The notes under the pieces are model-generated. The model saw nothing but the letters and a program-made list of their open reading frames with translations. It was not told the DNA's origin and did not search any database. A stretch of DNA of 60,317 nucleotides, the filler included. It is 7 parts of 7 records of this genome, joined end to end, with 100 filler letters (N's around TTAATTAATTAA, not from the genome) between each part and the next. Parts side by side here need not be neighbours in the genome. Positions count along the whole stretch, not along the records: positions 7,444 to 18,286 come from SRR31156797_29486; 6 more parts are not named here. One strand, given 5' to 3'. A program made the position numbers and the translations under genes. Position 1 is the first letter of the stretch. Each line of letters starts with the position of its first letter. This document shows positions 6,172 through 58,141 of the stretch, one piece after another.

Positions 6172-7343
6172 TTAAGCCTTTTTGAAATAGCGCAGCAGCG
6201 GGATGCCGTCCGGACGCATGGCCGGAATTATTGAGTTGCGGTACATGACCGGGTTGCCTTCGTGGGTTACAAAGAGGTACGCGCCCGACATTTCCATTAG
6301 GTCCTGCATACGTTTATACATCTGATCGCGCTTTTCCGTATCCGATTCCACTGCCGCCTTCATATGCAACTCATTGTATTCTTCGTTCCTGAAACGCTCC
6401 CAGTTCCAAATGCCGACCTGCTTCTTGGTGAACCACTGAGCCGCGTAATAAGGGTCGGGCGCGCTGGAAAACCGGTTAAAAATCAACTGGACATTCTTCC
6501 AGCGGTCGCCTTTTTTCTCGTCGCCCAGGGACCAGAAGGACCCGGAATCGTGTTGATTGATCTGGAGCCTGATGCCGGCTTCGGCCACTGTCGCCTGGAT
6601 GACCTGGGCGGCCGTAATATGGGAAGCCTTGTTGCGGCAGTCCAGGGTCAAATCAATACCGTCGGGATAACCGGCCTCGGCCAGAAGCTCCCGGGCTTTA
6701 TCACTCATGGCCTCACGGGGCAGTATGTTCTTTTCCCGGCGCCCGATCAAACCCGGAGGAATAAGGCCCGTGGAAGGCTTGGCCACGCCGAAGTAAGCCG
6801 CTTCCAATATCGAAGGCACATCAACGGCATATTGCACAGCCTGGCGCACCCGTTTATCCTTAAGCATTTTATTTTCCATGTTCATGCCGATCCACACATA
6901 ATAAAGCGAAGGGTGGAGCTCGACCGTGCTGTTAGCGGGTTTTTTCTGCTGCAGGTTTTCGAATGATGAAAGACTAATTCTGGTCCAATCCAGATCGCCG
7001 GCCTCAAAAGCGATTTCAGCGGTCTTCTCGTCATCGATCGGTAAAATGTGTATCTCCCGGAAGGCCGGTTTTTCGCCCTTCCATTCCGGGTTGACCGCCA
7101 ATACGGTCTTCTGCTTGGGCGTCCAGCTTTTTAGCACGTAGGGACCGGAATAGCACGGAGGCTCGGTGCTGAACTTGCCGCCGACTTTTTCCGTTGCCTT
7201 CTTGGAGATAATATTACCGGCCATGTAGGGGAGAGTCGTCATCCACAAAGCCTGAAATGGCTCTTTAAGGACAATGATCCCGCTGTATTTATCCTTGACC
7301 TCGACTTCCTTGAGCATCGCCCAGTCTCCCTTGATCGGGGACT
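6172..7343 (-). CDS. Peptide ABC transporter substrate-binding protein (family 5), 5' truncated by contig end
   Basis: SGPYVLKSW and DKRVRQAVQYAVD motifs; frame open up to the N spacer. Confidence 0.88.
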
Positions 7344-7443
7344 NNNNNNNNNNNNNNNNNNNNNNNNNNNNNNNNNNNNNNNNNNNNTTAATTAATTAAN
7401 NNNNNNNNNNNNNNNNNNNNNNNNNNNNNNNNNNNNNNNNNNN
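7344..7443. other. Artificial contig spacer (N run with TTAATTAATTAA); also at 18287-18386, 26211-26310, 38140-38239, 44311-44410 and 53748-53847
   Basis: Six 100-nt spacers of the same design; genes are truncated and base composition changes across them. Confidence 0.98.
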
Positions 7444-7632
7444 TATATCAGTATCGAAAAGTTTGACAGCAAGAATTTTACGGTACACCGCAAAATTCTT
7501 GGTAACGGCATTCCCATCCTGGAAGGGATTAACCTGAAAAGCGTTCCTGCAGGTAGATATACCCTGTACTGTTTCCCCCTGAAAATAAGGGGAGGGGATG
7601 GGGCGCCGGTTCGAGCTGTTTTGATGGATTAA
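7444..7632 (+). CDS. Cyclase / kynurenine formamidase family, 3' fragment (not in ORF track)
   Basis: Hand translation: YISIEKFDSKNFTVHRKILGNGIPILEGINLKSVPAGRYTLYCFPLKIRGGDGAPVRAVLMD*. Confidence 0.85.
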   Translation, partial: YISIEKFDSKNFTVHRKILGNGIPILEGINLKSVPAGRYTLYCFPLKIRGGDGAPVRAVLMD

Positions 7633-7680
7633 GGGCCTTGGAAAAAGGCTTGAGACTGCAATTTCAGGAATGAAATGGGA

Positions 7681-8670
7681 TCACGATTTCTTCTCCATAT
7701 CGTCCAAGGATAATTCAAGGTCCAGGGGTTCAATATCCAGGTCTGAAAAGAGATTCACGTCCATTTTTTCGTCAGCTGTTTTTTCCCCGGAAGCATCCGT
7801 TGCATTGGCGCGGGTTTTTTCCAGGTCAAAAGCAGCCACCTGTTTCTCTATTTCATCGGAATCCCAGAAACCTTTTTCACCAGGTGCATCTTTTTCAGCG
7901 GTTGCTTCCTCCTCATTGAGGACCTCTTCCAGTTCAAAAACGATATCATCATCTGTTCGGGTAGGTGTGGAAGTATCCGGTTTGGATTCACCCGTGGGCA
8001 GGTCGTCCAGGGATAGGAACAGTTCCCGGGAATCCGGCTCTGTATGGCTGATCGTTGCGGAATCGGTTTTCCCCGTGGGCACTTCCGGGTTTTCAGGTTT
8101 GTCTGCCAGGAAAAGATCCTGTTCATCGATTCTATCCCCTGTTTTTTCCTGAATCACCACCGTGTCAACGTCAACCCGTTTTTCATCAGGGCCGTCAAAA
8201 TCGGAGAAGCCTTTCTTATCAAGGGGGTCCATGCCGATGCTTTCAATTTCATCTTCTCCGGCTGCCGGCTCCAGATCAAACAGAATCTCATCTTCCGCCG
8301 TGTGGAAGGGCGTAAGCCGATCCTCTTTGGAATCGTTCGTATCAAGTACGATCTCATCCGTTGAAGGATCCAGCGGTTTTAGGGATTCCGGTTTGGTGTC
8401 GCCAAGCTCCAAATCATCAAGGGCAATTAATAGTTCCTGTGCATCCATCCCTTCGGGGGCGGCCCCGGAAGAAGGGGTATGGGCGCCATCGGCAGGAATT
8501 TCGAGGTGTGCGGAACCCTCCTTCCCGATAAGGGAGGCCAGAAAAAAAGGCGGATTCGGTTTATTGGGTGAGAGGTTCAGACGGACCTGTTCTTCAGTGG
8601 TGTCGTTTCCGCATTTGGGACAGACCCGGTTATAATCGAAACTGGTGTAATTGCATTTGGGGCATTTCAT
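7681..8670 (-). CDS. Zinc-ribbon protein with long acidic, low-complexity tail
   Basis: MKCPKC...CPKC N-terminus followed by an Asp/Glu-rich region. Confidence 0.7.
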   Translation of the reverse strand: MKCPKCNYTSFDYNRVCPKCGNDTTEEQVRLNLSPNKPNPPFFLASLIGKEGSAHLEIPADGAHTPSSGAAPEGMDAQELLIALDDLELGDTKPESLKPLDPSTDEIVLDTNDSKEDRLTPFHTAEDEILFDLEPAAGEDEIESIGMDPLDKKGFSDFDGPDEKRVDVDTVVIQEKTGDRIDEQDLFLADKPENPEVPTGKTDSATISHTEPDSRELFLSLDDLPTGESKPDTSTPTRTDDDIVFELEEVLNEEEATAEKDAPGEKGFWDSDEIEKQVAAFDLEKTRANATDASGEKTADEKMDVNLFSDLDIEPLDLELSLDDMEKKS

Positions 8671-8688
8671 GGCAAAGGCTCCACAAAC

Positions 8689-9141
8689 CTACGATTTACA
8701 TTTTAAAAGGGCCTCCCTGGCCAGGACGTCACACCGTTCATTTTCAGGATGTCCCTGATGTCCTTTGACCCATTTCCATTGGATTTCATGGGGTTGGCTC
8801 AGTTTTAACATTTCCTCCCAGAGGTCTTTGTTCAGAACCGGCTTTTTCTGGGAATTTTTCCAGTTTTTCTTGATCCAGCCGTGAATCCAAAGGGTCATGC
8901 CCTTCATGACATATTGAGAATCCGTTGTAACGATGATTTTGCAGGGTCGCTTGAGGCGACGAAGCGCTTCAATGACGGCCATCATTTCCATGCGGTTGTT
9001 GGTGGTTTGCCGTTCACACCCTGAAATCTCTTTTGTAGCCCCGCCATATCTGAGCAGGGAACCGTACCCTCCCGGCCCGGGGTTGCCGCTGCAGGCCCCG
9101 TCCGTAAAGATTTCCACAACTTTCTCTCTACTAACGGTCAT
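8689..9141 (-). CDS. rnhA: Ribonuclease HI
   Basis: [41 protein letters not shown]; start MTVSREK overlaps the upstream gene's end. Confidence 0.95.
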
Positions 9142-10213
9142 TGGGGCCCTTCTTTGTAAATCGACCATGGATGACGAAGGTGATAAAAGGCATTTCCGGG
9201 TAACCGGTTTTGAGCTTCAAGATACCATTGAAGTTACGATTGTTCCCGGGCAGAACCGAAAATTTTATACGGTATTTTTTTCCCTTTTCAACGGTTTCAA
9301 TGGTGTACTTCAGTTTATCTTTAAGGTTGAATTCCGTAATGGTGAGGTTCATGGATTTGTTCCGTTCGCTACGGATTTCCACCGTTTTGCTGATTTCAGC
9401 GCCTTCCATCCCGTAAAGGCGGATGTAGCGGGAAGAAACGTAAATGGGCGCTTTAACGGTATTTGCACCTCTTACCGGTGTCTCCTTTTTGATGCCGGGC
9501 GATAAGGCTCTGGGTGGAATGTTCATGGGTTTGAACCGACCATGAATCACAACCCTGATTTCCGGCTTCTCCGAATAGTTGGTTTTGAGTCTCAGTATCC
9601 CCCTGAAATTTTCCTTGATGCCGGGTATGGATGTGAACCGGATTCCGTATTTTTTTCCCTTTTGAACGGTTTCCATGGCGTATTTCAGTTTGTCTTTGAG
9701 GGTGTACTCAATAACCGTAAGATTCAATGGTTTGTCAAGTTCCGCTTCGATTTTAATGGTTTTATGAACTACGTTATCCCCCTTGCCGTACAGTTGGACA
9801 TACCTGGAAGAGACATTAATGGGTACCTTGACGATGGCTTTCACCACCAGTAAGACGGTTTGTTTTTCCGGGTCGTTGGTTTTGACCCGCGCTGACTTGC
9901 GAAGATTTCCCTGATACCCTTTTGTCCTGACTTTAAGGGTTATTTTTCCTTCCCCACCCGGGGGAACGGCCGGATCAAAATCGGCCACGGCACAGCCTCA
10001 ACCGGGTTTGACACTGATGATTTTAAGGGGTTCACTGCCTTTGTTAAAGATCTTAAAGGTATGTTCCAGAACCGTCCCCTCTTTGACTTCTTTAAAGTCG
10101 AATTCCCTTTCCTCCACCGTCATTCTGGGCCCTTTGTTGTCCTGGCCCGGGGCCATGCCGCTAAAGAGTGCCATAGACAAAGTTACCATGAGAATAAAAA
10201 ACAGTTTTTTCAC
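9131..10213 (-). CDS. Exported DUF1573-like Ig-fold protein, probable selenoprotein (UGA at 10000-9998 read as Sec); joins two track ORFs into 360 aa
   Basis: Signal peptide and EREFDFKEV...[18 protein letters not shown], then AAA CCC GGT TGA GGC TGT GCC GTG = KPG-U-GCAV, in frame with [15 protein letters not shown]. Confidence 0.75.
9966..9988 (-). promoter_or_regulatory. Candidate bacterial SECIS hairpin
   Basis: Minus strand GTGGCCG-ATTTTGATC-CGGCCGT; the GGCCG/CGGCC stem begins 11 nt after the UGA. Confidence 0.5.
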
Positions 10214-10260
10214 GTATTTCCTCCCCTTTTTTTAATAAAACAGGCCCTTTCAAAAAGAAG

Positions 10261-10902
10261 TCAAGCGGCCATCTCTTGACGGAGTTTGTAGGACAAAATA
10301 TCCATCATAACCGTAAAATCGATATTTTCAACCAGGCAGCAGTCGGGGACATTGATTCGGGTGGGTGCAAAATTCAAAATGGCGTTCACGTGACCCTCCA
10401 AGAAGAGATCCGCTACCCCCTGGGCCGCGGAAGCCGGAGTCGTGATTACGCCGATTTCAATGTCCAGATCCCGGATGGCGGTTTTTAATTCCTTGATATC
10501 CCGAATCTTCGTCCCGCCGGGAAGGGGCATTCCGATCCTGTCCCGGGCATTGTCAAAAGCCGCCACACACTTAAAGCCCCTGAGAGCCAGGTTTCTGTGC
10601 AGGAAAATGGCGCAACCCAAATTGCCCATCCCGGCGATGCCGAAATTCCAGTCCCGATTTACAGCCAGTATTTTTTTGATCTGAGTTTGCAGGTCAATGA
10701 CGTCATACCCCACTCCCCTGACGCCGAATTCTCCAAAATAGCCGAGATCTTTTCTGACCTGTGCCGGATTGATCTGGCATAACCATGCCAATTTTTCAGA
10801 AGAAACCATTCGATATCCGTCAAACTCCAGCAGTTCCAGCTGCCGGTAGTACATGGAAAGTCGGGTGATGGTCGCCTTCGGTATCTTTTTTGCCTTGGTC
10901 AT
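10261..10902 (-). CDS. rex: Redox-sensing transcriptional repressor Rex
   Basis: IPKATITRLSMY, QVRKDLGYFGEFGVRGVGY, GMGNLG, ILNFAP. Confidence 0.95.
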   Translation of the reverse strand: MTKAKKIPKATITRLSMYYRQLELLEFDGYRMVSSEKLAWLCQINPAQVRKDLGYFGEFGVRGVGYDVIDLQTQIKKILAVNRDWNFGIAGMGNLGCAIFLHRNLALRGFKCVAAFDNARDRIGMPLPGGTKIRDIKELKTAIRDLDIEIGVITTPASAAQGVADLFLEGHVNAILNFAPTRINVPDCCLVENIDFTVMMDILSYKLRQEMAA

Positions 10903-11082
10903 GATATTTTTTCCCTGTGGGACCCATAAAAAGCGCCCCCTCTTTCTGCTTTCCGGAGATGTAGCCTCTGCTCATAAGAGGCGGCATCGGAATATTGTAA
11001 AAAATACAATTTTTTTATACTATAAGGAAATTTTTTAAAAGACAAAAAAAAATTTACGGGAAATTCTGGGGATTAACGCTTC

Positions 11083-13005
11083 ATGACAATATCCGGGAAA
11101 GCTGAAAATGGTACGAAAGCCTTGGAAGATAACCTTCCGGTCACCTGCGATAGGGTTTCTAATGAACGATACCAGGCATTCATTGAAAATATCGAAGAAG
11201 GCGTATATGAAGTGGATCTCCACGGCAACTTCGTCTATTTCAATAATGCGTTTTGCAGGGTTCTGGGATATGCAAGAGAGGCGGTGCAATTCCGGAATTT
11301 CTCCAAATTTATGAGTCCGTCCAATGCGAAAAAGGCCCTTGAAACGTTCAATGGCATTCATCAAACCGGGAAGGGCTTTTCTGATCTCCTGTGGGAATTC
11401 CGGGCCGGGAGTGGTGAGACGCGAACCATTGCACTTTCGGCCAATTTGATTCTCGGTAAGGATGATGACCCTGTGGGTTTCCGCGGTATCGCCAGGGATG
11501 TTACCTTTGAAAAACGGATCAAGCGGAATAACGAAGCCCTGCTCCGTACCAGCCTGGCCCTTCCGGAATATTCCGACCTGGATCATCTTTTGTCTTATAT
11601 CAGCCGTGAAATCAAAAATATTCTGGACGCTGAAGGTGCACTGGTGATCCTGCTGGATGAAGAAACGGGGGAACTCTACTTCAAGTCGGCGGTCCATGAC
11701 GATCTGGCCACCGAAAAAAGGGCAAAAGAGGTGCGTTATCCAGCCGACAAAGGGGTTGCCGGCAAAGTTATTCGTACCGGAGAACCGGTTCTGGTAAAGA
11801 ATGTCTCTGATGATCCCGACTATTATTCGGCTGTGGATGTGCAGGCGGGTTTCAAAACGAAAAACATGCTGGATGTCCCTTTAAGGAGTGGAGAGCGGAC
11901 CATCGGGGTTTTGTGCGTGATTAACAAAAAACGGGGGGATTTTGATGAAACGGACATAGAAGTGTTGAATACCATTTCCGGAACCGTTGCCCTGTCCATT
12001 GAAAACGCACGATTTTCAAAGGCCCTGACCGAGTCTTACAAAGAGGTTTCAAGCCTGAGTCGGGCCAAGGACAAAGTGATTAATCACCTTTCCCACGAAT
12101 TGAAAACACCTGTGGCCGTATTGGGTGCTTCCTTGAATATTCTGAGGAAAAGACTGGGAACGGTACCCGAGTCCCGTTGGGAGCCCACCATGAAACGGGC
12201 CAAACGCAATCTGGACCGCCTCCTTCAACTGCAGTATGAAGTTGAAGACATCATGCAGGCGAAGCACTATGATGCACACCACCTCATTTCCGTATTGATG
12301 GAGGAATGCATTGACGTTTTAGAATCCCTGGTGGTTGAAGATACGGGAGAGGGCTTGGGGATCCGGAAATTGAGAAGCCGTATCGATGAAATTTTTCTGC
12401 CGAAACAGGATGATCCTGAGAACATTCTGTTGGACCGGTTTGTATCTCGTACCATCGAATCGGTCAAAATCAAATGCGGACACCGTAACATTGAGATCAT
12501 TTCACATCTGGGAAGTGTTCCGCCCATTTGTCTGCCGGTGGGAGTCATGGAAAAAGTTGTTTTTGGACTCATCAAAAATGCCATTGAGAACATTCCGGAT
12601 GGTGGAAAAGTCGAGGTCAATGTTCAAAGGGTGGGGGATGGCGCGGAACTGGTGGTTCGCGATTATGGTGTGGGTATCAACGGTGATGATCAGCATCGTA
12701 TTTTTGAAGGCTTCTGGGCTACCCAGGATACCATGGATTATTCGTCGAAACAGGAATTTGATTTCAACGCCGGCGGAAAAGGGGCGGATTTGCTGAGAAT
12801 GAAAATCTTTTCCGAGCGCTATCATTTCAAGATTGATATGATTTCGTCACGGTGCAGGTGGTTGTCCTTGGAGCAAATCAATTGTCCCGGGGATATTCTA
12901 AAGTGCGGATATTGTAAAATTCCGGCTGATTGTCATCGATCGGGCGGTTCCATGTTTACCGTGGTGTTTCCTTCTATTCAGGAGAATGCCTGCAAGACGC
13001 CGTAA
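11083..13005 (+). CDS. PAS-GAF sensor histidine kinase with Cys-rich C-terminal insert
   Basis: PAS (YEVDLHGNFVYFNNAF...GFRGIARDVT), GAF, H-box LSHELKTP, N-box LIKNAIEN, DYGVGI. Confidence 0.88.
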   Translation: MTISGKAENGTKALEDNLPVTCDRVSNERYQAFIENIEEGVYEVDLHGNFVYFNNAFCRVLGYAREAVQFRNFSKFMSPSNAKKALETFNGIHQTGKGFSDLLWEFRAGSGETRTIALSANLILGKDDDPVGFRGIARDVTFEKRIKRNNEALLRTSLALPEYSDLDHLLSYISREIKNILDAEGALVILLDEETGELYFKSAVHDDLATEKRAKEVRYPADKGVAGKVIRTGEPVLVKNVSDDPDYYSAVDVQAGFKTKNMLDVPLRSGERTIGVLCVINKKRGDFDETDIEVLNTISGTVALSIENARFSKALTESYKEVSSLSRAKDKVINHLSHELKTPVAVLGASLNILRKRLGTVPESRWEPTMKRAKRNLDRLLQLQYEVEDIMQAKHYDAHHLISVLMEECIDVLESLVVEDTGEGLGIRKLRSRIDEIFLPKQDDPENILLDRFVSRTIESVKIKCGHRNIEIISHLGSVPPICLPVGVMEKVVFGLIKNAIENIPDGGKVEVNVQRVGDGAELVVRDYGVGINGDDQHRIFEGFWATQDTMDYSSKQEFDFNAGGKGADLLRMKIFSERYHFKIDMISSRCRWLSLEQINCPGDILKCGYCKIPADCHRSGGSMFTVVFPSIQENACKTP

Positions 13006-14117: not shown

Positions 14118-14162
14118 GGGCCTCAAAGAGGGTTAGTTGGAATTTATTAAGTGGAGGGTATT

Positions 14163-15224
14163 ATGGTCATTCAGTGTGAAAGCTGTCGAACTGAGTTCAA
14201 TCTCGATGAATCTCTTCTCAAGGAAGAGGGGTCAAAAGTCAGATGTTCCCGGTGTCGCCATGTATTTACCGCCTATCCTTCCGCGCCCGTTCCGGCCGCT
14301 GAGACGGTGGAAAGTCCTGATGCCTTTGAAGGACCGGAGCCTGTTACCTCGGAAAAGACGGATGCCCCTATTCCTGAAATTGAAGAGGGTGTTGAAAAGG
14401 ACCGGGAAAATGGTGCCGCCTCTGCGCTGGAGTCTGATCTGGATGTAATTTACCAAGATGTGTTCAGTGAAGCGGATCACAGTGCCGTTGATGAAAAAAC
14501 CGTGCATGACGATGCGGTTGAAGACGTCTTCAAAGATGCGAGCCGGGGAGAAGAAGTATTGGCCCATGGCCCGGCACCTGTTTTTCCTTCCATGGATTCC
14601 GTTGATGAAGATCCGCCGTTGCTAAAAGAGGAAAGGGAAGGAGACGAAGCGCCGGAAAGTGAACCCGCTCCCAAAAAGAAATCCTCAAAGCTTTCCATGG
14701 CGGTGGTGATTCCTCTGATTTTTATTATCCTTGGGGCTGCCGGCGCCTATGTTGTATGGAAAGCCGATTTGATTCCGCCTTCAGTGCTTTCCATGTTGAA
14801 CGGTTCTTCGGAAAAAAAGAAGCCTGCCGATGCAGGTGCCCGACTTTTGCAGTTCGGGTCGGTGAACGGGGTATTTGTCGATACGGAAAAAAGCGGACCT
14901 CTTTTCGTCATTCGTGGAATGGTGACCAATAAATATCCACAAAGCAGGCGTCATATCCTGATCAGGGGGAGTATTCTGGATAACAAGGGCGTGGTGGTGA
15001 TTGCCAAAACCGCCTATGCGGGAAATACTTTCAGTGAGGAGGAACTCAAAACGCTCCCCTTAGATGAGATTACAACGGCTGCGGATAATCGTGACGGTAT
15101 GGCCAGACAAAATTTTGATGTGGCAACCGGCGCCACAATCCCTTTTATGATTGTCTTTGCCCAGCTTCCCGATGATTTGAGCGAGTTCACTGTTGAAGCG
15201 GTCGGTTCATCGTCCGGGAATTAA
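14163..15224 (+). CDS. MJ0042-type zinc finger / DUF3426 membrane-anchored protein
   Basis: CESC...KVRCSRCRHVF, acidic linker, one TM helix, C-terminal IPFMIVF domain; GGAGG upstream of 14163. Confidence 0.8.
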   Translation: MVIQCESCRTEFNLDESLLKEEGSKVRCSRCRHVFTAYPSAPVPAAETVESPDAFEGPEPVTSEKTDAPIPEIEEGVEKDRENGAASALESDLDVIYQDVFSEADHSAVDEKTVHDDAVEDVFKDASRGEEVLAHGPAPVFPSMDSVDEDPPLLKEEREGDEAPESEPAPKKKSSKLSMAVVIPLIFIILGAAGAYVVWKADLIPPSVLSMLNGSSEKKKPADAGARLLQFGSVNGVFVDTEKSGPLFVIRGMVTNKYPQSRRHILIRGSILDNKGVVVIAKTAYAGNTFSEEELKTLPLDEITTAADNRDGMARQNFDVATGATIPFMIVFAQLPDDLSEFTVEAVGSSSGN

Positions 15225-17239: not shown

Positions 17240-18286
17240 ATGCCCTATGGCTATAACGGCAGGATATTGAGAGTTGATCTGGATAAAAAGTCCATCTCCG
17301 ATGAATACCCTTCGGAAATTGTCTATCGAAAATATATGGGGGGGTCGGCCCTGGCGCTTTATTACCTGCTCAAAGAACTGAAGCCGGGGACCGATCCCCT
17401 GAGCGCCGATAATATTCTGGTTTTTATGAGCAATGTGGTGTCGGGTGTACCGAGCCCCGGATTGACCCGGTTTACCATCGCAGCCCGTTCCCCGCTGACA
17501 GGCGCCTTTGGCGAGGCCGAGGCCGGGGGGTTCTGGGGGCCTGAGCTGAAGATGGCGGGTTTTGACGGTATTATTATTGCCGGACGTTCCGAAACGCCGG
17601 TATATCTATGGATCAAAGACGGCAAATGTGAAATACGCGATGCTTCAAAGCTTTGGGGCCGGGACACCGGGGAGGTGCAAACGCTTATGAGGGAAGCGTT
17701 GGGGGATCAACATATTCGCGTGGCACAGTGTGGTCAGGCGGGTGAAAATCTGGTCCCTTATGCCTGTGTGGTCAATGAGTTGAAGCATGTGAGCGGCAGG
17801 ACCGGCATGGGCGCGGTAATGGGCGCCAAAAACCTGCGGGCCGTTGCCGTTCGCGGTACGGGGAAAATCCCCACGGCCCAACCGGACAAGGTTCGAGAGC
17901 TCACCCGGCAGGCGGTTGATCGAATACCGAAATCTCCCCTGGGAAGCCAGTTGAAACGGTTTGGGACGCCTGTTTTCGTGATGGGTCTCCAGAACGGGGG
18001 CATTCTGCCCACACGGAATTTTCAGGAAGGACGGTTCGAGGGTGCTGAAGCCATCTCCGGGGAAACCATGGAGCGGACCATCCTTCAAGGGCCGAAAGGG
18101 TGCTACAGCTGTCCCGTTCGTTGCAAACGGAGCGTGAAAGTTGAAGGAAAATACCCCGCAATACCCGAGTACGGCGGCCCCGAATACGAGACCCTGGGTT
18201 CTTTGGGCTCACTTTGCGGTATCGGCGATTTGGCGGCCATCAGCCATGGAAACGAAATCTGCAATCGCTGGGGGCTGGATACCATT
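17240..18286 (+). CDS. Tungsten aldehyde:ferredoxin oxidoreductase family, 3' truncated
   Basis: GYNGRILRVDL, RSPLTG, GRTGMGAVMGAKNLRAVAVRG, CYSCPVRC, GPEYET. Confidence 0.92.
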
Positions 18287-18387
18287 NNNNNNNNNNNNNN
18301 NNNNNNNNNNNNNNNNNNNNNNNNNNNNNNTTAATTAATTAANNNNNNNNNNNNNNNNNNNNNNNNNNNNNNNNNNNNNNNNNNNNA

Positions 18388-19522: not shown

Positions 19523-21970
19523 ATGCAAGTAGAGATTTCAAGAAGAAAATTTCTTCAGGGTTCTGTAGCATTATCTGTAGTTGCAGCATCAACTTCAGCA
19601 CTTTCAAATAGCACTAAAAGTGAAAATAAAAAAGTGTATGGAACTACAAAAACATCTGTTGAAAACAAAGATGTAAATATAGTTCCTACACTTTGTGAGA
19701 TGTGTGTGAATAAATGTGCAGCATATGCTAGAGTAGAGAATGGAGTGGTTACCAAATTGGATCCAAATCCACATTTTCCAAAATCACAAAATATGTTGTG
19801 TGCTAGGGGTAATGCAGGAATTCAAGCATTGTATGATCCTGATAGAATAAAATACCCATTAATTAGAGTTGGAGAAAGAGGTGAAGGAAAATACAAAAGA
19901 GTAACTTGGGATGAAGCATACACTTATATAAGTAAAAACTTGACTAAGATATTAGATGAGGAAGAGGATAATCGTTCTTGTATAGGATATTGCGCAGGCG
20001 AAGGTATGGCAGAGCATACATTTAAAACATTTATGCAAGATAAGTTTGGTTCAACAAACTTTGTAAATCACGCTTCAATATGTTTACAAACAACAGTTTC
20101 AGGTTATGCATTAACTGTTGGAGGATATGGTCAAGCTGATTTAGAAAATGCTGATTATATTATTATGGCTGGAGCAAATAGAGCAGAAGCTATTGTAACT
20201 CCAGATACTATGGAACTATTTAAAAGAACAAAAGGTAGAGGAGCAAAACTTGTAGTAATAGACCCAAGATTTACAAATACAGCAGCTCACGCTGATGAAT
20301 GGGTACCAATTGAAGTTGGTAGTGATTTAGCTTTGGTTTTAGCAATGACTCATATAGTTATAACAGAAGAGTTATATAACAAAAAATTTGTTTCTTTAAA
20401 TGTAAATGGTTTTGAAGAGTACAAAAAACATATACTTGAAAACAATTATACTCCCCAGTGGGCAGAAAAAATAACTGGTATAAAAGTATCTCAAATCAAA
20501 AAAATGGCAAGAGATTTTATGCATTATGCTCCTAAATCAATCTATTATCAAGGAAGAAGAACAGCTTGGAGTAAACAAGATTTCCAACTTAGACGCGCAC
20601 AAGCAATATTTACAGCACTTGGAGGTGGTATTGATAAAGAGGGTGGAATTATATTTGGTAAAAAACTACCTTTATCTAGCCATGAAATAAATATGCCAAT
20701 GTATGCAAATGCAGAAGGAAGAATAGAAAAAGATGCCGCTGCAATTATTGGTGGTTCTGGTTCTTGGATAGCTTGGAGAAATATGGTTGCTGAGGATAAA
20801 ACTCCATACCCAATTAGAGGAATGTTTATATATAAACAAAACCCAATGTTAAGTGTACCAAATGTTGCAAAAACAAGAAAAATGTTTGAAAAAATGGATT
20901 TAATTGTTGCAATTGAAACTATGCCAAGTGATACTGCAATGATGGCAGATGTAATCTTACCAGAGTGTACATATTTAGAAAGAGAAGACCCAGTAAAATC
21001 TTTTGGTGGAACACAACCTTCTATTGCACTTAGACAACAAGCAGTAAAACCAATGTGGGAAACAAAACCTGTGATTGAAATAATGCATGGCTTAGGTAAA
21101 AAATTATCTGAACCACTATGGGAAATCACTAAAAAATATGATGAAGATGTGCAAGATGAAATTGCTGATATGGATGAATCAGAAATTAAAAAGTACTACA
21201 AAAAGAATGGTTTTGATTTAGCTGATGCATTTGAAGAGTCGCAAGAAGAGATAAACAGACATATGGTTGAAAAAGTTTATGGAAAAAAGGCTTGGGAGAC
21301 TTTAAGAGAAAAAGGTGTGTTTTATTTAAATATGGATAAATACTTTAAAAAACTATCAGCAAATAGATATGAATGGTACCCTAAAAAAAGTAGATTTTAT
21401 TCTGTTGTAAAAGGTGAATTTAAAGCAGATGTTTTCCATGATACTTGTGTAGATGAAAAAGAGATTGCAGTACTTAAAAAGAAATTCAAAACTCCAACTG
21501 GAAAAGTTGAGTGTGTATTAGAAAACTTAGCAAGAAAAGGTGTTGATGCAATGCCAACTTGGAGACAAGAGATGTATACACAAACTCCAAAAGATAAATT
21601 CAAATTTATTACAGGGCGTCATGCTCAGTTTACACAAAATGCAACATCTAATAACGCGATGTTATTGGATTTATTACCAGAAAACTATTTATGGGTAAAT
21701 AAAAGAGTTGCAAGGCAAAGAGGTATTGAATTTGGTGATTTAGTTGAGGTAGAAAGTAAAATTGGAAAAATAAATATTAAAGCTTATCCAACAGAAAAAA
21801 TAGGACCAAATACTTTATTTTTTGTGCACGGATTTGGTTCTTCGTCAGATAATCTAACTTTGGCTAAAGGAAATGGTGCAAGTGATAATACTATTATCGA
21901 AGATACTATTGAACCAGTATTTGGTAGTGCAGCGATGCATGAGACAATCGTTGATATAAGAAAGGTTTAA
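19523..21970 (+). CDS. psrA: Polysulfide/thiosulfate reductase-type Mo-bisPGD catalytic subunit (PsrA/PhsA family)
   Basis: Tat signal SRRKFLQ, CEMCVNKC...LCARG Fe-S motif, HASIC ligand region, C-terminal molydopterin-binding domain. Confidence 0.82.
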   Translation: MQVEISRRKFLQGSVALSVVAASTSALSNSTKSENKKVYGTTKTSVENKDVNIVPTLCEMCVNKCAAYARVENGVVTKLDPNPHFPKSQNMLCARGNAGIQALYDPDRIKYPLIRVGERGEGKYKRVTWDEAYTYISKNLTKILDEEEDNRSCIGYCAGEGMAEHTFKTFMQDKFGSTNFVNHASICLQTTVSGYALTVGGYGQADLENADYIIMAGANRAEAIVTPDTMELFKRTKGRGAKLVVIDPRFTNTAAHADEWVPIEVGSDLALVLAMTHIVITEELYNKKFVSLNVNGFEEYKKHILENNYTPQWAEKITGIKVSQIKKMARDFMHYAPKSIYYQGRRTAWSKQDFQLRRAQAIFTALGGGIDKEGGIIFGKKLPLSSHEINMPMYANAEGRIEKDAAAIIGGSGSWIAWRNMVAEDKTPYPIRGMFIYKQNPMLSVPNVAKTRKMFEKMDLIVAIETMPSDTAMMADVILPECTYLEREDPVKSFGGTQPSIALRQQAVKPMWETKPVIEIMHGLGKKLSEPLWEITKKYDEDVQDEIADMDESEIKKYYKKNGFDLADAFEESQEEINRHMVEKVYGKKAWETLREKGVFYLNMDKYFKKLSANRYEWYPKKSRFYSVVKGEFKADVFHDTCVDEKEIAVLKKKFKTPTGKVECVLENLARKGVDAMPTWRQEMYTQTPKDKFKFITGRHAQFTQNATSNNAMLLDLLPENYLWVNKRVARQRGIEFGDLVEVESKIGKINIKAYPTEKIGPNTLFFVHGFGSSSDNLTLAKGNGASDNTIIEDTIEPVFGSAAMHETIVDIRKV

Positions 21971-21972
21971 TT

Positions 21973-22536
21973 ATGGCTAGATATGCAATGGCACTAGATT
22001 ATAAAAATTGTATTAATTGTAAAGCATGTGAAACAGCATGTAAAGAGGAAAATGGCGTACTTTTAGGTGCAGAAAGTCATAGAATTTGGGTTGGAACAAA
22101 AGAGATAGAAGGGGAGTTTCCTTTTCTAAATATCTCATCAAGTAATTTTCTTCCAAGCCAATGTCAACAATGCTCAAATGCTCCATGTCAAGAAGTATGC
22201 CCTACAAATGCAACATATTATGATGAGAATGGAGTTGTAAGAGTTGATGCTGATAAATGTATATTATGCTCTTACTGTATGACTGCATGTCCTTATGATG
22301 CTAGATATGTAGATGATAGAACAAATACAGTTGATAAATGCAATTTTTGTGCGGAAACTAGATTAGCAAGAGGTGAAACAACAACTGCTTGTCAGGCAAC
22401 ATGTCCTACAAAAGTTAGAATATTTGGTGATTTGGATGATCCAAATAGTGAGATTTCACAGGTATTAAGAACAAGAGAACATTTCTCATTAAAATCACAT
22501 TTAGGTACTGAACCTAAACTATTTTATCTAACATAA
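21973..22536 (+). CDS. psrB: Four-cluster Fe-S electron transfer subunit (PsrB/NrfC-like)
   Basis: CINCKACETAC, CQQCSNAPCQEVCP, CILCSYCMTACP, KCNFC...CQATCP. Confidence 0.85.
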   Translation: MARYAMALDYKNCINCKACETACKEENGVLLGAESHRIWVGTKEIEGEFPFLNISSSNFLPSQCQQCSNAPCQEVCPTNATYYDENGVVRVDADKCILCSYCMTACPYDARYVDDRTNTVDKCNFCAETRLARGETTTACQATCPTKVRIFGDLDDPNSEISQVLRTREHFSLKSHLGTEPKLFYLT

Positions 22537-22543
22537 GGAGTTT

Positions 22544-23725
22544 GTGATGAGTATAAGAACATTTATTCCTATCAAAGAGGTTTCTTTTAAAGAGCTTGTT
22601 ACATTTAAAGCGAGTTTTTCAAATGTAACTATGGCATTACTTACTTTAGGTTTGGTTGCTTTATTTATTGCAGGAGCAATAACTTATCTAATAGAGGGGC
22701 ACCATGCATATAATGTAACAAGAGAACACCCTTGGGGTTTGATTATTGGTATGTATGTATTTTTTGTTGTATCTAGTACTGGATTGTGTATTATGTCTTC
22801 AATAGGACATGTATTTGGTGTAAAAGAGTTTGAAATTATTGGTAAAAGAGCAATAATTGGAGCAATACTTACAATCTCTACAGGGTTTTTAGTAATCGCC
22901 TTAGAGATTGGACACCCAATAAGAATGGTTATTTACAATATCTTAACTCCAGGTTTTACTTCTGCTATTTGGTGGATGGGTACTTTGTATGGTATGTATT
23001 TAGGATTTATAATATTTGAGTTTTTCTTTTTGATTAAAGAGAATCATAAATGGTCAAAGATATTTGGATTAGGAGGATTATTAGTTGGTATTGCAGCTCA
23101 TAGTAACCTTGGTGCAGTATTTGGGTTTTTGATTGCTAGACCAATATCAAATGGTGTATTTTTTCCTATATATTTTATTTTATCAGCAATGATTACAGGT
23201 TCATACTTACTATTTTTAATGTATGGGTTTAGATATAAAATGGATTTTCCACCTGAAGTTGAAGCGATGTTGAAAAAACTTGCAAAAATTTTAGGCTTGC
23301 TATTGGCTATATTGATGTTTTTTGAGATTTGGAGAATGTTTACATCTATTTATGGTGGAATGCCAGGTCGTGCAAATGTTGCAGAGCATATTTTGACAAG
23401 TAGTAACTTTTTGGTTGGGGAAGTACTATTGGGAATGGTTATACCTTTTTTAGTGATTTTATTAAGTAAAGGTAACAATATAAAAGGTATGGTTTGGGCT
23501 TCTATTTTAGGTATGGTTGGAATCTTCTTTATGAGATACGATTTAGTTCACGATACACAGCTAATGCCTTTACAATTATTAAAAATTAGGGAGTATCAGT
23601 TAGCACCAAGTTTTGTAGAGTATTTCCCTTCTTTTGCAGAGATTGCTATATCTATTGGTGGTATTGGTGTCTGCTTATTGTTATATTATTTTGCAGAGAA
23701 ACTATTTAATCTAGATTATAAATAG
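22544..23725 (+). CDS. psrC: NrfD/PsrC family membrane anchor
   Basis: PWGLIIGMYVFF, LEIGHPIR, SAIWWMG; many TM helices; third gene of the operon. Confidence 0.82.
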   Translation: MMSIRTFIPIKEVSFKELVTFKASFSNVTMALLTLGLVALFIAGAITYLIEGHHAYNVTREHPWGLIIGMYVFFVVSSTGLCIMSSIGHVFGVKEFEIIGKRAIIGAILTISTGFLVIALEIGHPIRMVIYNILTPGFTSAIWWMGTLYGMYLGFIIFEFFFLIKENHKWSKIFGLGGLLVGIAAHSNLGAVFGFLIARPISNGVFFPIYFILSAMITGSYLLFLMYGFRYKMDFPPEVEAMLKKLAKILGLLLAILMFFEIWRMFTSIYGGMPGRANVAEHILTSSNFLVGEVLLGMVIPFLVILLSKGNNIKGMVWASILGMVGIFFMRYDLVHDTQLMPLQLLKIREYQLAPSFVEYFPSFAEIAISIGGIGVCLLLYYFAEKLFNLDYK

Positions 23726-23740
23726 AAGAAAGGATATGTC

Positions 23741-24928
23741 ATGAAAGTCGGAATTGTTTTTAAAGGATTGTTAGTTATAGGTTTAAGTACAGGTTTATAC
23801 GCAAGCGAAGCTTTAAACATTGAAAAAGTAAGTCCAAAGGTTCAAACTCTAATAACAAAATATAAGTTAGATGTTGTGGACTATACTTATGCAAAAGCAA
23901 AAATGGCAAAAGGAACTGTAGATGGTGCAAAAGCAATCTTTGTTGATGCTAGACCAAACAAGAAATACAAAGCTGGAACTATTCCAAGCTCTATAAATAT
24001 TCCAGATACTGAGTATAAAAAATATATTGGGCAACTAAAAAATACTGCAAAAAACAAAGAGATACTTGTATTTTGCGGAGGTTGGAAATGTGGCAAAAGT
24101 CCAAAGGTTGCAAATATGTTAAAAAAAGATGGTTTTACAAATGTAAAACTTTATCAAGCAGGAGAACCTGAATGGAGCAAAAAAAATTATAAACAAATAG
24201 ATTTATCTGTGATTAAAAGTGCCCAAGAGAAAAATAGTTCTTTTTTAATTGATGCTAGACCTTATGTGAAATTTTTGCAAGAAACTATTCCTGGAAGTAT
24301 CTCAATTCCTGATACTGAGCTTGAAAAACTAAAAGGAAGATTCCCTGTAAACCATAAAGAAAAAGTTATAGTTTTTTGTGGGGGATATAAATGTGTCAAA
24401 TCACATAATGTAGCAAAAAAACTTATCTCTATGGGCTATAGAGATGTCTCTGTTTTTGCAGCAGGAGTTCCAGCTTGGAAAAAAGCAGGCTTATCTACTA
24501 CTAAAAGTGCAGCAAAAAAAGTAGAAAAACCTTCAGCTAAAAAACCTATGTTTAGTAAAAATGGAGCAAAATTAGGAGCTGATGAGGGAAGTATAGATGG
24601 TGAGTGGTTATATTCTTTAATCAAACAAGATAAAGTTCCTTCATTTATCCAAATAGTTGATGTTACAAGTGAAGATGAATATAAACAAGGACATTTAAAA
24701 GGTGCGATAAATATTACAGCTGAGAGCTTATCTGCTAAAGAGTTATTAGCTAAACTTCCAAAAGATAAAACAGTAGTTTTTAATTGTACTGCAGGTGGAA
24801 GATCAATGGATGCATGGTCAAAACTAAATGAAGTGGGAATTGATGTTTCTGAAATCTTTTATTTTGATGCAAATATTGATTGTAAAGGTAATGATTGTAA
24901 GATTGAGGTTAATGAGCCTTTAGAATAA
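23741..24928 (+). CDS. Exported three-domain rhodanese / sulfurtransferase
   Basis: Signal peptide; VDARP...FCGGWKC, IDARP...FCGGYKC, VDV...FNCTAGGRS. Confidence 0.85.
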   Translation: MKVGIVFKGLLVIGLSTGLYASEALNIEKVSPKVQTLITKYKLDVVDYTYAKAKMAKGTVDGAKAIFVDARPNKKYKAGTIPSSINIPDTEYKKYIGQLKNTAKNKEILVFCGGWKCGKSPKVANMLKKDGFTNVKLYQAGEPEWSKKNYKQIDLSVIKSAQEKNSSFLIDARPYVKFLQETIPGSISIPDTELEKLKGRFPVNHKEKVIVFCGGYKCVKSHNVAKKLISMGYRDVSVFAAGVPAWKKAGLSTTKSAAKKVEKPSAKKPMFSKNGAKLGADEGSIDGEWLYSLIKQDKVPSFIQIVDVTSEDEYKQGHLKGAINITAESLSAKELLAKLPKDKTVVFNCTAGGRSMDAWSKLNEVGIDVSEIFYFDANIDCKGNDCKIEVNEPLE

Positions 24929-26337: not shown

Positions 26338-27111
26338 TTAGTAGGCTTCGCCGCTTCGTTTGCACGATCTTGCGGAAACGCAGCTGTTTATTTCATTTAA
26401 AATTTTGGTTTCGAGTTCATTTACGTAAGAACTTAAATTCCATTCCCATTTACGGTCTCCGGCTATCAGTTCGATGCCAAGGCCCAGTCTGGAATCAGTT
26501 ATGAAAATTCGTTCATTATCAACCAAAAACAATTCATTGAGCAATTGTTTTAGGTTTTGTTCTTGTAGCTCAGTATGTTCGAATCCAGTACGAATCAGAA
26601 TTTCTGAATTGCCGCAATCCACACCACGCGCTTCTTCATCAATACGCTGCATGAATCCACTTAAAATCAGCTGCTCAAGATCACTACCGGAAAGATCCTG
26701 CACAATCCGTGCGGCGGTGGCAGAGATCTCATGGATGAGCTTCTTACGCAGGTTAAGCGCAACACTTTCCTTTTCCCGCTCCAATGCGGCCAGCCATTCC
26801 CTGCGCATGGTTTCAACCTCACCACGTGCAGAATCCATGACCTGCTCACGCCACCTTTCGGCCTCGGCATGGATTTCTGCCATGACCTCGGCCTCACGGT
26901 TATCAAGGTCCGCACGTTTACTGCGGAGTTCCATATTCAAGGTCTGCGCTTCAGTTCTGGCTTCTCGCAATGCATGAGTTTCCTGCGCAACATGCTCCTT
27001 ACGCTGCCGCATAGCCTCAATAATCGGCTTGTACAAAAACAACCTGAGCAATGCGATAAGCACAAAGAAGTTCAGGATCTGCGCAAAGATCGTGAACCAA
27101 TCCAACAGCAT
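26338..27111 (-). CDS. atpF: N-ATPase b subunit (long b/delta-like form)
   Basis: LDWFTIFAQILNFFVLIALLRLFLYKPI, coiled coil, C-terminal LGLGIEL...WNLSSY. Confidence 0.88.
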   Translation of the reverse strand: MLLDWFTIFAQILNFFVLIALLRLFLYKPIIEAMRQRKEHVAQETHALREARTEAQTLNMELRSKRADLDNREAEVMAEIHAEAERWREQVMDSARGEVETMRREWLAALEREKESVALNLRKKLIHEISATAARIVQDLSGSDLEQLILSGFMQRIDEEARGVDCGNSEILIRTGFEHTELQEQNLKQLLNELFLVDNERIFITDSRLGLGIELIAGDRKWEWNLSSYVNELETKILNEINSCVSARSCKRSGEAY

Positions 27112-27113
27112 TA

Positions 27114-27392
27114 TCAGCCTCCGGCCTTTTCAATAAAGTATGACCAGAACGGATTCGCAAAAAGCAGAATCATAGCCAACACAAAACAATAGATCGCCGT
27201 AGATTCGACCATTGCCATACCCACAAACAAAAACTTAACAATAGTATTAGTCTCATCAGGCTGCTGGGCAATAGAACTGAGTGCCCGTGAAAGGGCCATC
27301 CCCTCACCGATCGCAGGCCCAATGGCCCCAATGCCCATACAAAGCCCTGCCGCAATAATCGACCCAAAAGCAATCCAACCAAGAGTTTCCAT
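27114..27392 (-). CDS. atpE: N-ATPase c subunit
   Basis: GAIGPAIGEG, AQQPD loop, ESTAIY; AAGGAGG upstream of METLG. Confidence 0.95.
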   Translation of the reverse strand: METLGWIAFGSIIAAGLCMGIGAIGPAIGEGMALSRALSSIAQQPDETNTIVKFLFVGMAMVESTAIYCFVLAMILLFANPFWSYFIEKAGG

Positions 27393-27411
27393 ACGAACCT
27401 CCTTTTGATTA

Positions 27412-28080
27412 TTATCCATGCACTTCAAGTCCTGCGGCGATAAACACCGCCGCAAGCACGGTAAATATATAAGCCTGCACCACTCCGATAAGCAGCCCGA
27501 GCATCTGCATGATTACAGGCACGAACAACGGCATAATCACCAGTAAAATTGCTCCCATCATGGTTCCACTAAGTATGTTCCCGAAAAGACGCACCGCTAA
27601 AGCAAAAGTCCGGCTGACCTCACCGATCATGTTAAAAGGCAGCATAAACGGCGAAGGCTGCACGTAACTTTTAAGATAGTTGAGCAAACCGTTCTCCTTT
27701 ATTCCGTAATAGGGAACGGCGAAAAAGACGATCAGGCTGAAGGCCGTGGTAGTTGAAAGTGACCCTGTGGGCGGCTTGAATCCCGGCACAACGGAAAGAA
27801 GATTGGAAACGAGAATGAAAATAAACAGAGTTCCGAGCAACGGTAGAAACTTCTCCGGCTGCTGATTGGTAGCATCCTTGATCTGGGATAACAGCCCACC
27901 CACTAGAACTTCCAACAGATTCTGCTGCCCTGTAATCTGCGCAGAGGATGTTACTCTACGGGTCACAAACCATGAAAATCCCACAAGCAGAACCATAACC
28001 AGCCATGTATAAACTATGGTGGCATTCAGCTTAAAAAATCCAAAGCTGAAATAAATAATATGGTCCGGGCTTATTTCCAT
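27412..28080 (-). CDS. atpB: N-ATPase a subunit
   Basis: PPTGSLSTT, LAVRLFGNI, GVVQAYIF. Confidence 0.95.
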   Translation of the reverse strand: MEISPDHIIYFSFGFFKLNATIVYTWLVMVLLVGFSWFVTRRVTSSAQITGQQNLLEVLVGGLLSQIKDATNQQPEKFLPLLGTLFIFILVSNLLSVVPGFKPPTGSLSTTTAFSLIVFFAVPYYGIKENGLLNYLKSYVQPSPFMLPFNMIGEVSRTFALAVRLFGNILSGTMMGAILLVIMPLFVPVIMQMLGLLIGVVQAYIFTVLAAVFIAAGLEVHG

Positions 28081-28388
28081 TCAGTCCCCTTCATTTTGAC
28101 TATATCCAGCATGCCCATGCCGCAATGATTTGCCAGCACGTAAGTTCTTAATAGATAGAACCCGAAAAATGCTGCCACAAACGGCAACGGCCCATAGCTC
28201 AGAACCTGCGCAAAACCCCAAAGGGTTATTCCATAACGACCCAGATAGCTGGACCAGAAAAACAAACGCGGACGTTCACAGCGAGGCAGCATACGCACGG
28301 TCAGCCACAAACCGCCGAAATGAATTGCCGAAAGAAGCAAACCTATACCAAAAGCGGCAATGGTTATCATAAAACTACTGATGATCAT
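28071..28388 (-). CDS. atpR: N-ATPase AtpR subunit
   Basis: HFGGLWLTVR motif; position between atpQ and atpB; exact start uncertain. Confidence 0.8.
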   Translation of the reverse strand: MIISSFMITIAAFGIGLLLSAIHFGGLWLTVRMLPRCERPRLFFWSSYLGRYGITLWGFAQVLSYGPLPFVAAFFGFYLLRTYVLANHCGMGMLDIVKMKGTEWK

Positions 28389-28742
28389 TTTCTCCATCTT
28401 TAGCCCCTATATCCTGTTGCTCCCACTCTTCACGTTCTTTGATAATCTTGTTCTTCTCGCGATTCATCCATATCCCGGCAAACAAGCAGCCTATGGCAAG
28501 CCCCGCCCCAAGCATGGTCATGGTCCAATTGATTTTGGTAGGCCAACGATGATCCAGCCAAACTCCAAACAGACTGCCCAGCACCACAGGTAAAGCCACC
28601 AGCCAGCCCACGGCCCCCATGGCCCCAAAAGCCGACCACGCACCGACAGTACCTTTTTGCTCCGCACGAATTTTACGTTGCTCCTTGCTGCCTACCATCT
28701 GACCAAATTCCTTCGGCTTGCGGTCACTTGGCTTGGACGGAC

Positions 28743-28746
<4 letters not shown>
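28375..28746 (-). CDS. N-ATPase AtpQ (AtpZ/AtpI-like) protein
   Basis: GAVGWLVALPVVLG...GVWLD...WTMTML...GC; conserved position in the operon. Confidence 0.82.
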
Positions 28747-30592
<1,846 letters not shown>

Positions 30593-57953: not shown

Positions 57954-57957
57954 AAAC

Positions 57958-58097
57958 AAGTCATCTCAAAAATGTTCTTTGACCCAATATTTTTGTCAGG
58001 CTTGAAACGCAATCCTCGAAATATTTTTAATATTACTGCGGTTACGTTTCATCGCCTTCCTCAATCTTGGGCCAAACTCCTATTTTTGAAATAACTT
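57958..58097. repeat. 140-bp imperfect palindromic intergenic element (MITE-like)
   Basis: Terminal inverted repeats AAGTCATCTCAAAAAT / ATTTTTGAAATAACTT (14/16) with nested internal arms. Confidence 0.7.
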
Positions 58098-58141
58098 ATA
58101 ATTAATGCAAAACCAAACAACCTGATTGGGAGGTACATTTT

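Follow-up and report, generated by a model that had tools for sequence, protein, structure and literature searches.

Two adjacent open reading frames on the minus strand of the DNA analysed here (the window, a stretch of 60,317 nucleotides, filler included) raise the question of whether they are separate genes or a single gene whose internal TGA codon is read as selenocysteine (Sec). The first-pass annotation had joined them into one gene at 9131..10213, and these coordinates are correct; the strand is minus. The upstream frame has 71 codons and is closed by TGA at 10000..9998, and from there, as that annotation had read from the sequence, the frame continues through GGC TGT GCC GTG into a frame of 285 codons that ends with a TAG stop at 9133..9131. 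There is, in other words, a single 360-codon frame at 10213..9131 (minus strand) whose only interruption is this TGA, and translation with TGA as U gives a 360-residue protein with a U-G-C motif in which U is residue 72. A scan of the window for TGA read-through returned 11 rows, in which this was the sole gene-like candidate; the other 10 were classed by judgement as shadows or overlaps of annotated genes, and no further selenoprotein candidate was found in the window among frames interrupted only by TGA. We conclude that 9131..10213 holds a genuine selenoprotein gene, cut in two by gene callers. Its basic features are as follows.

9131..10213, minus strand: complete selenoprotein gene, 360 codons plus TAG, with a GTG start at 10213 and one in-frame TGA
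10223..10229, minus strand: putative Shine-Dalgarno-like GGGGAGG 5' of the GTG start, from reading of the sequence
9998..10000, minus strand: UGA as selenocysteine, residue 72 of U-G-C (TGA in 74/79 and 17/17 relatives, Cys codons in 5)

Relatives of the gene keep the TGA. A protein search returned 79 relatives, the 44 closest of which (56–87% identity) are 201–288 amino acids long and cover at most 79% of the query; these were therefore called from the first start codon past the TGA, much as the first-pass annotation had supposed when it said that gene callers split the gene. Full-length relatives of 357–377 amino acids, at 23–38% identity, have CGC at the aligned column and are continuous through the break. 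When the genome contigs were fetched, the motif was found in 79 of 80 loci (L073 had no match to the motif pattern), and the codon at this column is TGA in 74 of the 79, TGC in 3 and TGT in 2; TAA and TAG are not seen there. Among metagenome contigs the motif was found in 17 of 22 loci (the pattern gave nothing in L098–L102); all 17 have TGA, and 12 of them are contigs of the window's own clade at 69–86% identity. The reading frame is intact on both sides of the TGA across relatives at 27–86% identity. Homologues with TGA or Cys at this column thus exist in the proportions just given, and the worry that relatives might have Cys or other stop codons and never TGA does not apply to this family. 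Because relatives keep the TGA at the column, the reading of one gene with Sec is supported. One could instead suppose a Cys-type DUF1573 gene turned pseudogene, its TGA having arisen by nonsense mutation or been introduced in sequencing or assembly. This would be compatible with the single sequence, in which the 71 nt around the UGA (window sequence alone) fold with an energy no better than shuffles (z −0.44), but it is almost certainly wrong, as the TGA recurs in these independent loci from many assemblies over the whole 27–86% identity range, with neither TAA nor TAG ever at the column and with the flanking frame undamaged.

The family to which the protein belongs is recognizable from its sequence. 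The read-through protein matches Pfam DUF1573 (PF07610) at 1.8e-20 with 73.2 bits (cut-off 26.1) over residues 31–122, that is, across residue 72, and the HYDIN/VesB-like Ig domain PF22544 at 1.1e-10. Against the NCBIfam model NF041425 ('OS_HP2 family (seleno)protein', curated cut-off 100) it scores 114.9 bits, with residues 33–128 aligned on profile positions 1–97 of 98. The first-pass annotation had proposed a DUF1573 domain whose CGC column holds TGA, and both the PF07610 match and the CGC of the Cys-form homologues agree with it. The name OS_HP2 stands for 'Olavius symbiont's hypothetical protein 2', and Table 2 of Zhang and Gladyshev 2007 (PMC1976440) lists it as a new family of selenoproteins; a table in the 2008 ocean-metagenome paper of Zhang and Gladyshev (PMC2398784) gives OS_HP2 as pfam07610 with the motif UxC, and OS_HP2/DUF1573 with a UxC/UGC motif also appears in reviews of 2022 and 2026. 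The available portions of these papers and reviews report no experiment on the family and no protein-level evidence for Sec. The features of membership are all present in the window protein: the NF041425 score, the PF07610 domain, and a U-x-C motif whose TGA aligns to the Cys of homologues. It resembles the family in passing the NF041425 cut-off, in carrying PF07610, in having U-G-C with Sec replacing the first Cys of CGC, and in its occurrence among delta-proteobacterial lineages, and it differs from the family in no defining feature. The gene therefore belongs to the OS_HP2/DUF1573 selenoprotein family described in 2007, and is real but not new. Since the family had already been described, the first-pass interpretation is right but not novel; its phrase 'hidden selenoprotein' holds in so far as gene callers split the gene, but not for the family, which has a curated NCBIfam model and papers going back to 2007.

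An even sample of 401 genomes was drawn from the phylum to which one relative belongs, and 63 of them have a match at E ≤ 1e-25; the matches fall in 69 places, 56 of which contain an in-frame TGA and 13 none, the TGA being counted anywhere in frame within the match and not column by column. OS_HP2 is thus widespread, with matches in these 63 sampled genomes of one phylum that are mostly Sec forms, and the biological gain is modest. The consequence for annotation is more tangible: the records give this gene and its 44 nearest relatives as proteins cut down to about 201–288 amino acids, labelled 'DUF1573' or hypothetical, which lose the signal peptide and the Sec site, and NF041425 is already available as a remedy. 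What is added here to a known family is small, namely the result with two hairpins and the two kinds of gene neighbourhood described below. Two TGA-form OS_HP2 loci lie outside the delta-proteobacterial lineages, one (L071) in Acidobacteriota and one (L080) in a record labelled Patescibacteria group, a label that may be a binning error. Some genomes hold two or three OS_HP2 paralogues; one (G380) has three matches, and in another (G001) the paralogues L001 and L013 lie in separate neighbourhoods, of the rex/rnhA and the rhodanese/MauE kinds.

An AlphaFold model built with 41 aligned sequences has a mean pLDDT of 90.6. It predicts an N-terminal helix at residues 2–17, three beta-sandwich domains at residues 30–129, 132–228 and 257–353, and a poorly predicted linker at 237–249. 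Together with the match to PF22544 it agrees with the Ig fold claimed by the first-pass annotation. The parts of the protein lie as follows.

10145..10213, minus strand: probable signal peptide, about residues 1–23 (Lys-Lys, then a hydrophobic core; model helix 2–17)
9848..10123, minus strand: DUF1573 / HYDIN-VesB-like Ig domain, residues 31–122 (PF07610, PF22544; model strands 31–129), spanning the UGA
9530..9820, minus strand: second beta-sandwich, residues 132–228, predicted by the AlphaFold model, with no Pfam family match
9155..9445, minus strand: third beta-sandwich, residues 257–353, predicted by the AlphaFold model, a duplicate of the second domain

The protein was also said to be exported, and its N-terminus reads as an export signal; relatives have AQ-type cleavage sites. 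It would probably leave the cytoplasm by this N-terminal signal peptide through the Sec export pathway. In the model Sec72 is placed in the loop between strands 63–70 and 75–79 of the first domain, and Cys74 is in the same loop. Domains 2 and 3 are identical at 56 of 97 aligned residues, so the third domain is an internal duplication; in the window's clade it duplicates the second, whereas many relatives have two domains (about 230–250 amino acids) or a third one that is unrelated. Among solved structures, sequence and profile searches found no significant match (best 2qsv_A, E 0.79), and a Foldseek search of the PDB returned only generic tandem Ig-like chains such as those of ciliary central-apparatus proteins, titin and cadherins. 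Proteins of the Cys form, with CGC or CAC as the motif, share with the window protein the DUF1573 domain, the export signal and the signature FD...PPGGEG...TNDP, and differ in having Cys for Sec and in that both hairpins downstream of the motif are weaker than in the Sec forms.

This architecture bears on the possibility that the two frames are after all two genes, one for an exported 71-amino-acid peptide and one for a 285-amino-acid protein starting from the GTG at 9988. Many databases do hold the 285-amino-acid part alone, as annotated by gene callers. Such a division would nevertheless cut through one Pfam domain (residues 31–122) and one modelled beta-sandwich, would leave the 285-amino-acid protein with no signal peptide, and is at odds with the continuous Cys-form homologues; we therefore regard it as extremely improbable. 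The one-gene reading, which was also that of the first-pass annotation, accounts for a single frame and for a PF07610 domain that crosses the TGA.

If UGA is read as Sec, a bacterial selenocysteine insertion sequence (SECIS) is looked for just downstream, within the coding sequence. Two hairpins lie there.

9966..9988, minus strand: hairpin 1, formed by GGCCG/CGGCC and two wobble pairs, with loop AUUUUGAUC and 16 nt between UGA and loop
9950..9966, minus strand: hairpin 2, formed by the Val-Pro-Pro-Gly-Gly-Glu codons, with a stem of 6 bp, loop CGGGU and 37 nt between UGA and loop

Hairpin 1 is the one that the first-pass annotation had pointed to. It does lie 11 nt past the UGA, where its arms begin (GGCCG at 9986..9982, CGGCC at 9972..9968), and its 23 nt fold at −9.0 kcal/mol with five G-C pairs and a 9-nt loop, AUUUUGAUC; but it is one of two candidates, and it has no G at loop positions 1–2. 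An alternative fold with a bulged C may also be possible. The SECIS of E. coli fdhF is a stem-loop that starts 11 nt after the UGA and has GU in its apical loop and a bulged U in its upper stem. Hairpin 1 is like it in being a stem-loop inside the coding sequence that begins at this distance from the UGA, and differs in having no identifiable GU apical loop or bulged U, its loop AUUUUGAUC lacking the leading G. No match to the Rfam SECIS family was found, and Rfam searching of 9900..10060 at permissive settings brought up CRISPR and snoRNA matches at chance level only. A promoter and terminator scan of 7300..11300 was likewise at chance level; one terminator-like match there is the small GGCUGU/GUGGCC hairpin directly after the UGA.

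To what extent the two hairpins are kept was judged from an alignment of 66 nt around the UGA in the window and the 74 TGA-form loci (75 Sec forms in all). The bases of hairpin 1 form standard pairs in 75.7% of cells, a value that falls to 27–48% when the 3' partner is slid; shuffles give 72.8%, and 0 of 500 reach the observed value. Its mean energy is −7.9 kcal/mol, against −4.4 for synonymous recodings (z is negative for 63 of the 75 sequences), and in 37 of the 75 it is weaker than −7.5 kcal/mol. Hairpin 2, at −8.6 kcal/mol in the window, is formed by codons that read Val/Ile-Pro-Pro-Gly-Gly-Glu across the family, and 93.9% of its cells pair; in 66 of the 75 sequences it outdoes synonymous recodings in stability. 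Most of this hairpin is dictated by the Pro-Pro-Gly-Gly codons, and the sole freely variable pair is 48–57, made of third positions of Pro and Gly codons. That pair is CG in 30 sequences, GC in 15, UG in 7, UA in 5, AU in 1 and unpaired in 16, and its covariation score is 0.160 against 0.086 in shuffles (0/500). RNAalifold, given the 75 aligned Sec forms, did not call hairpin 1 and returned only a 4-pair hairpin 2.

Both hairpins are stronger in Sec than in Cys forms (75 versus 17 distinct sequences), a comparison confounded by phylogenetic distance and amino-acid differences: the means are −7.9 versus −3.4 kcal/mol for hairpin 1 and −10.4 versus −5.7 for hairpin 2, energies of −7.5 kcal/mol or lower are found in 38/75 versus 1/17 for hairpin 1 and in 69/75 versus 4/17 for hairpin 2, and the synonymous pair 48–57 is paired in 59/75 versus 4/17. 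The bacterial SECIS model used by bSECISearch, as given in the legend to Fig. 2 of the 2026 review, has a loop of 3–9 nt, a stem of 4–16 bp and a G in loop positions 1–2; the same legend gives a spacing of 16–37 nt and an energy of −7.5 kcal/mol or lower. Compared by hand with these quoted rules, hairpin 1 has a permitted loop length (9 nt), stem, spacing (16 nt) and energy (−9.0 kcal/mol), but G stands at neither of the two loop positions concerned, whereas hairpin 2 agrees with all four rules, with a 5-nt loop and G at loop position 2, its spacing being at the outer limit allowed (37–38 nt). Hairpin 2 is thus better conserved than hairpin 1 and closer to the published rules for a bacterial SECIS. 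Judging by sequence and predicted folds, a SECIS-like signal is present after the UGA, and hairpins 1 and 2 are both candidates for SelB.

Could the UGA be read through as some other residue, Trp, Cys or Gly, by near-cognate suppression or in a genetic code in which TGA is a sense codon? The Patescibacteria group label on the TGA-form locus L080 leans this way. TGA is an ordinary stop in 8 of 45 other window genes checked, however, and a code with sense TGA can therefore be set aside; the codon alternates only with Cys codons, and the hairpins are enriched in TGA over Cys forms. A tRNA scan found no tRNA gene in the window, which also has no Rfam match and no selA, selB, selC or selD gene. The genomes of TGA-form relatives do have the Sec machinery: selA, selB and selD score above curated cut-offs in 5 of 5, and a tRNA-Sec match is present in 5 of 5, at 69–74 bits in four and at 50 bits (weak) in one. 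Decoding as another residue is consequently very improbable. In the same five genomes (G001–G005) the six selD matches have one in-frame TGA each, and SelD itself is apparently a selenoprotein in these relatives.

We hold it to be highly probable, then, that 10213..9131 is one gene for an exported OS_HP2/DUF1573 selenoprotein whose UGA is recoded under the influence of a nearby stem-loop. In outline, SelB and tRNA-Sec would most likely insert selenocysteine at codon 72 (UGA), directed by a stem-loop within the next 20–55 nt of coding sequence, for which the hairpins at 9988..9966 and 9966..9950 are the candidates. The product would carry a signal peptide followed by three beta-sandwich (Ig-like) domains, with Sec72 and Cys74 in a loop of the first.

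The neighbours of the gene bear on the role of the U-G-C site; the nearest are these.

10261..10902, minus strand: rex (redox-sensing repressor; NF003993, 263.6 bits), 47 nt upstream of the selenoprotein gene
8689..9168, minus strand: rnhA (RNase HI; NF001236, 234.7 bits), downstream, its longest open reading frame overlapping the end of the selenoprotein gene

Among related loci, rex is directly upstream in 23 of the 74 whose flank is long enough, and rnhA comes directly after the gene in 26 of 85. A second kind of neighbourhood has a rhodanese adjoining the OS_HP2 gene (9 of 97 related loci, in three arrangements, Cys forms included); a MauE/DoxX membrane protein is also present in 6 of those 9, and the one rhodanese whose sequence was read, that of L094, carries a membrane anchor at its N-terminus. 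In the window's own clade the neighbours are rex and rnhA, and not rhodanese and MauE. A search for sites like the Rex operator consensus found 2, each with 3 mismatches; both lie far from the gene, and more would be expected by chance.

Sec generally sits at redox-active sites. On this account and on that of the rhodanese and MauE/DoxX neighbours, we favour a role for U-x-C as a selenenylsulfide/selenol redox or sulfur-transfer site outside the cytoplasm over metal binding, with a confidence that is about even. The other reading, in which U-G-C is a binding site for soft metals or metalloids (Hg, Cu, As or Se species) and takes no part in thiol/selenol redox chemistry or sulfur transfer, draws on the frequent use of C-x-C as a pair of metal ligands. 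Several metal-binding families, among them MerP/MerT, YHS, CopZ-like proteins and cation ATPases, also figure in published lists of selenoproteins from prokaryotes. In related loci no gene for metal resistance or transport was found as a conserved neighbour, the recurrent neighbours being rex/rnhA or rhodanese with MauE/DoxX, and we consider metal binding possible but rather unlikely.

The redox or sulfur-transfer reading can be extended into a more specific picture, which we offer as a long shot: OS_HP2 might be the extracytoplasmic selenol end of a sulfur or thiol relay with an outward-facing, membrane-anchored rhodanese and MauE/DoxX, the Rex-linked paralogue in the window might tie that relay to NADH/NAD+, and, as a separate matter, the hairpin on the self-complementary Pro-Pro-Gly-Gly codons might be the SECIS. 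If that last part were true, the recoding signal would coincide with a conserved peptide motif.

Other genes of the window are recorded here in their own right. A polysulfide/thiosulfate-reductase-like operon at 19523-24928 (plus strand) encodes PhsA-like molybdopterin, 4Fe-4S and NrfD-type membrane subunits, the last followed by a protein with three rhodanese domains; this sulfur-chemistry operon is about 10 kb from the selenoprotein gene in window coordinates. Downstream of rnhA, at 7681-8670 (minus strand), is a gene for a very acidic zinc-ribbon protein with no Pfam match, which occupies this place in 27 of 97 related loci, and a second zinc-ribbon protein (Zn_ribbon_5 and DUF3426) is encoded at 14151-15224 (plus strand). 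The frame at 7396..8688 is open except for one TGA. At 6172-7710 (minus strand) a 381-amino-acid open reading frame for an oligopeptide/nickel-type ABC substrate-binding protein aligns only from profile position 133, so that its N-terminal third is seemingly absent or in another frame. An aldehyde:ferredoxin oxidoreductase gene at 17240-18334 (plus strand) is apparently truncated, with AFOR_N full and AFOR_C matched at positions 1–131 of 385; mobA follows 170 nt after it, and no TGA read-through was flagged there. An 'alternate' F1F0 ATPase set (alt beta, epsilon, gene-1 protein, A, C and B subunits) occupies 26338-30532 (minus strand), and two tandem DUF3604 paralogues of 639 and 652 amino acids, each covering the whole 591-position profile, lie at 56034-60100 (plus strand).
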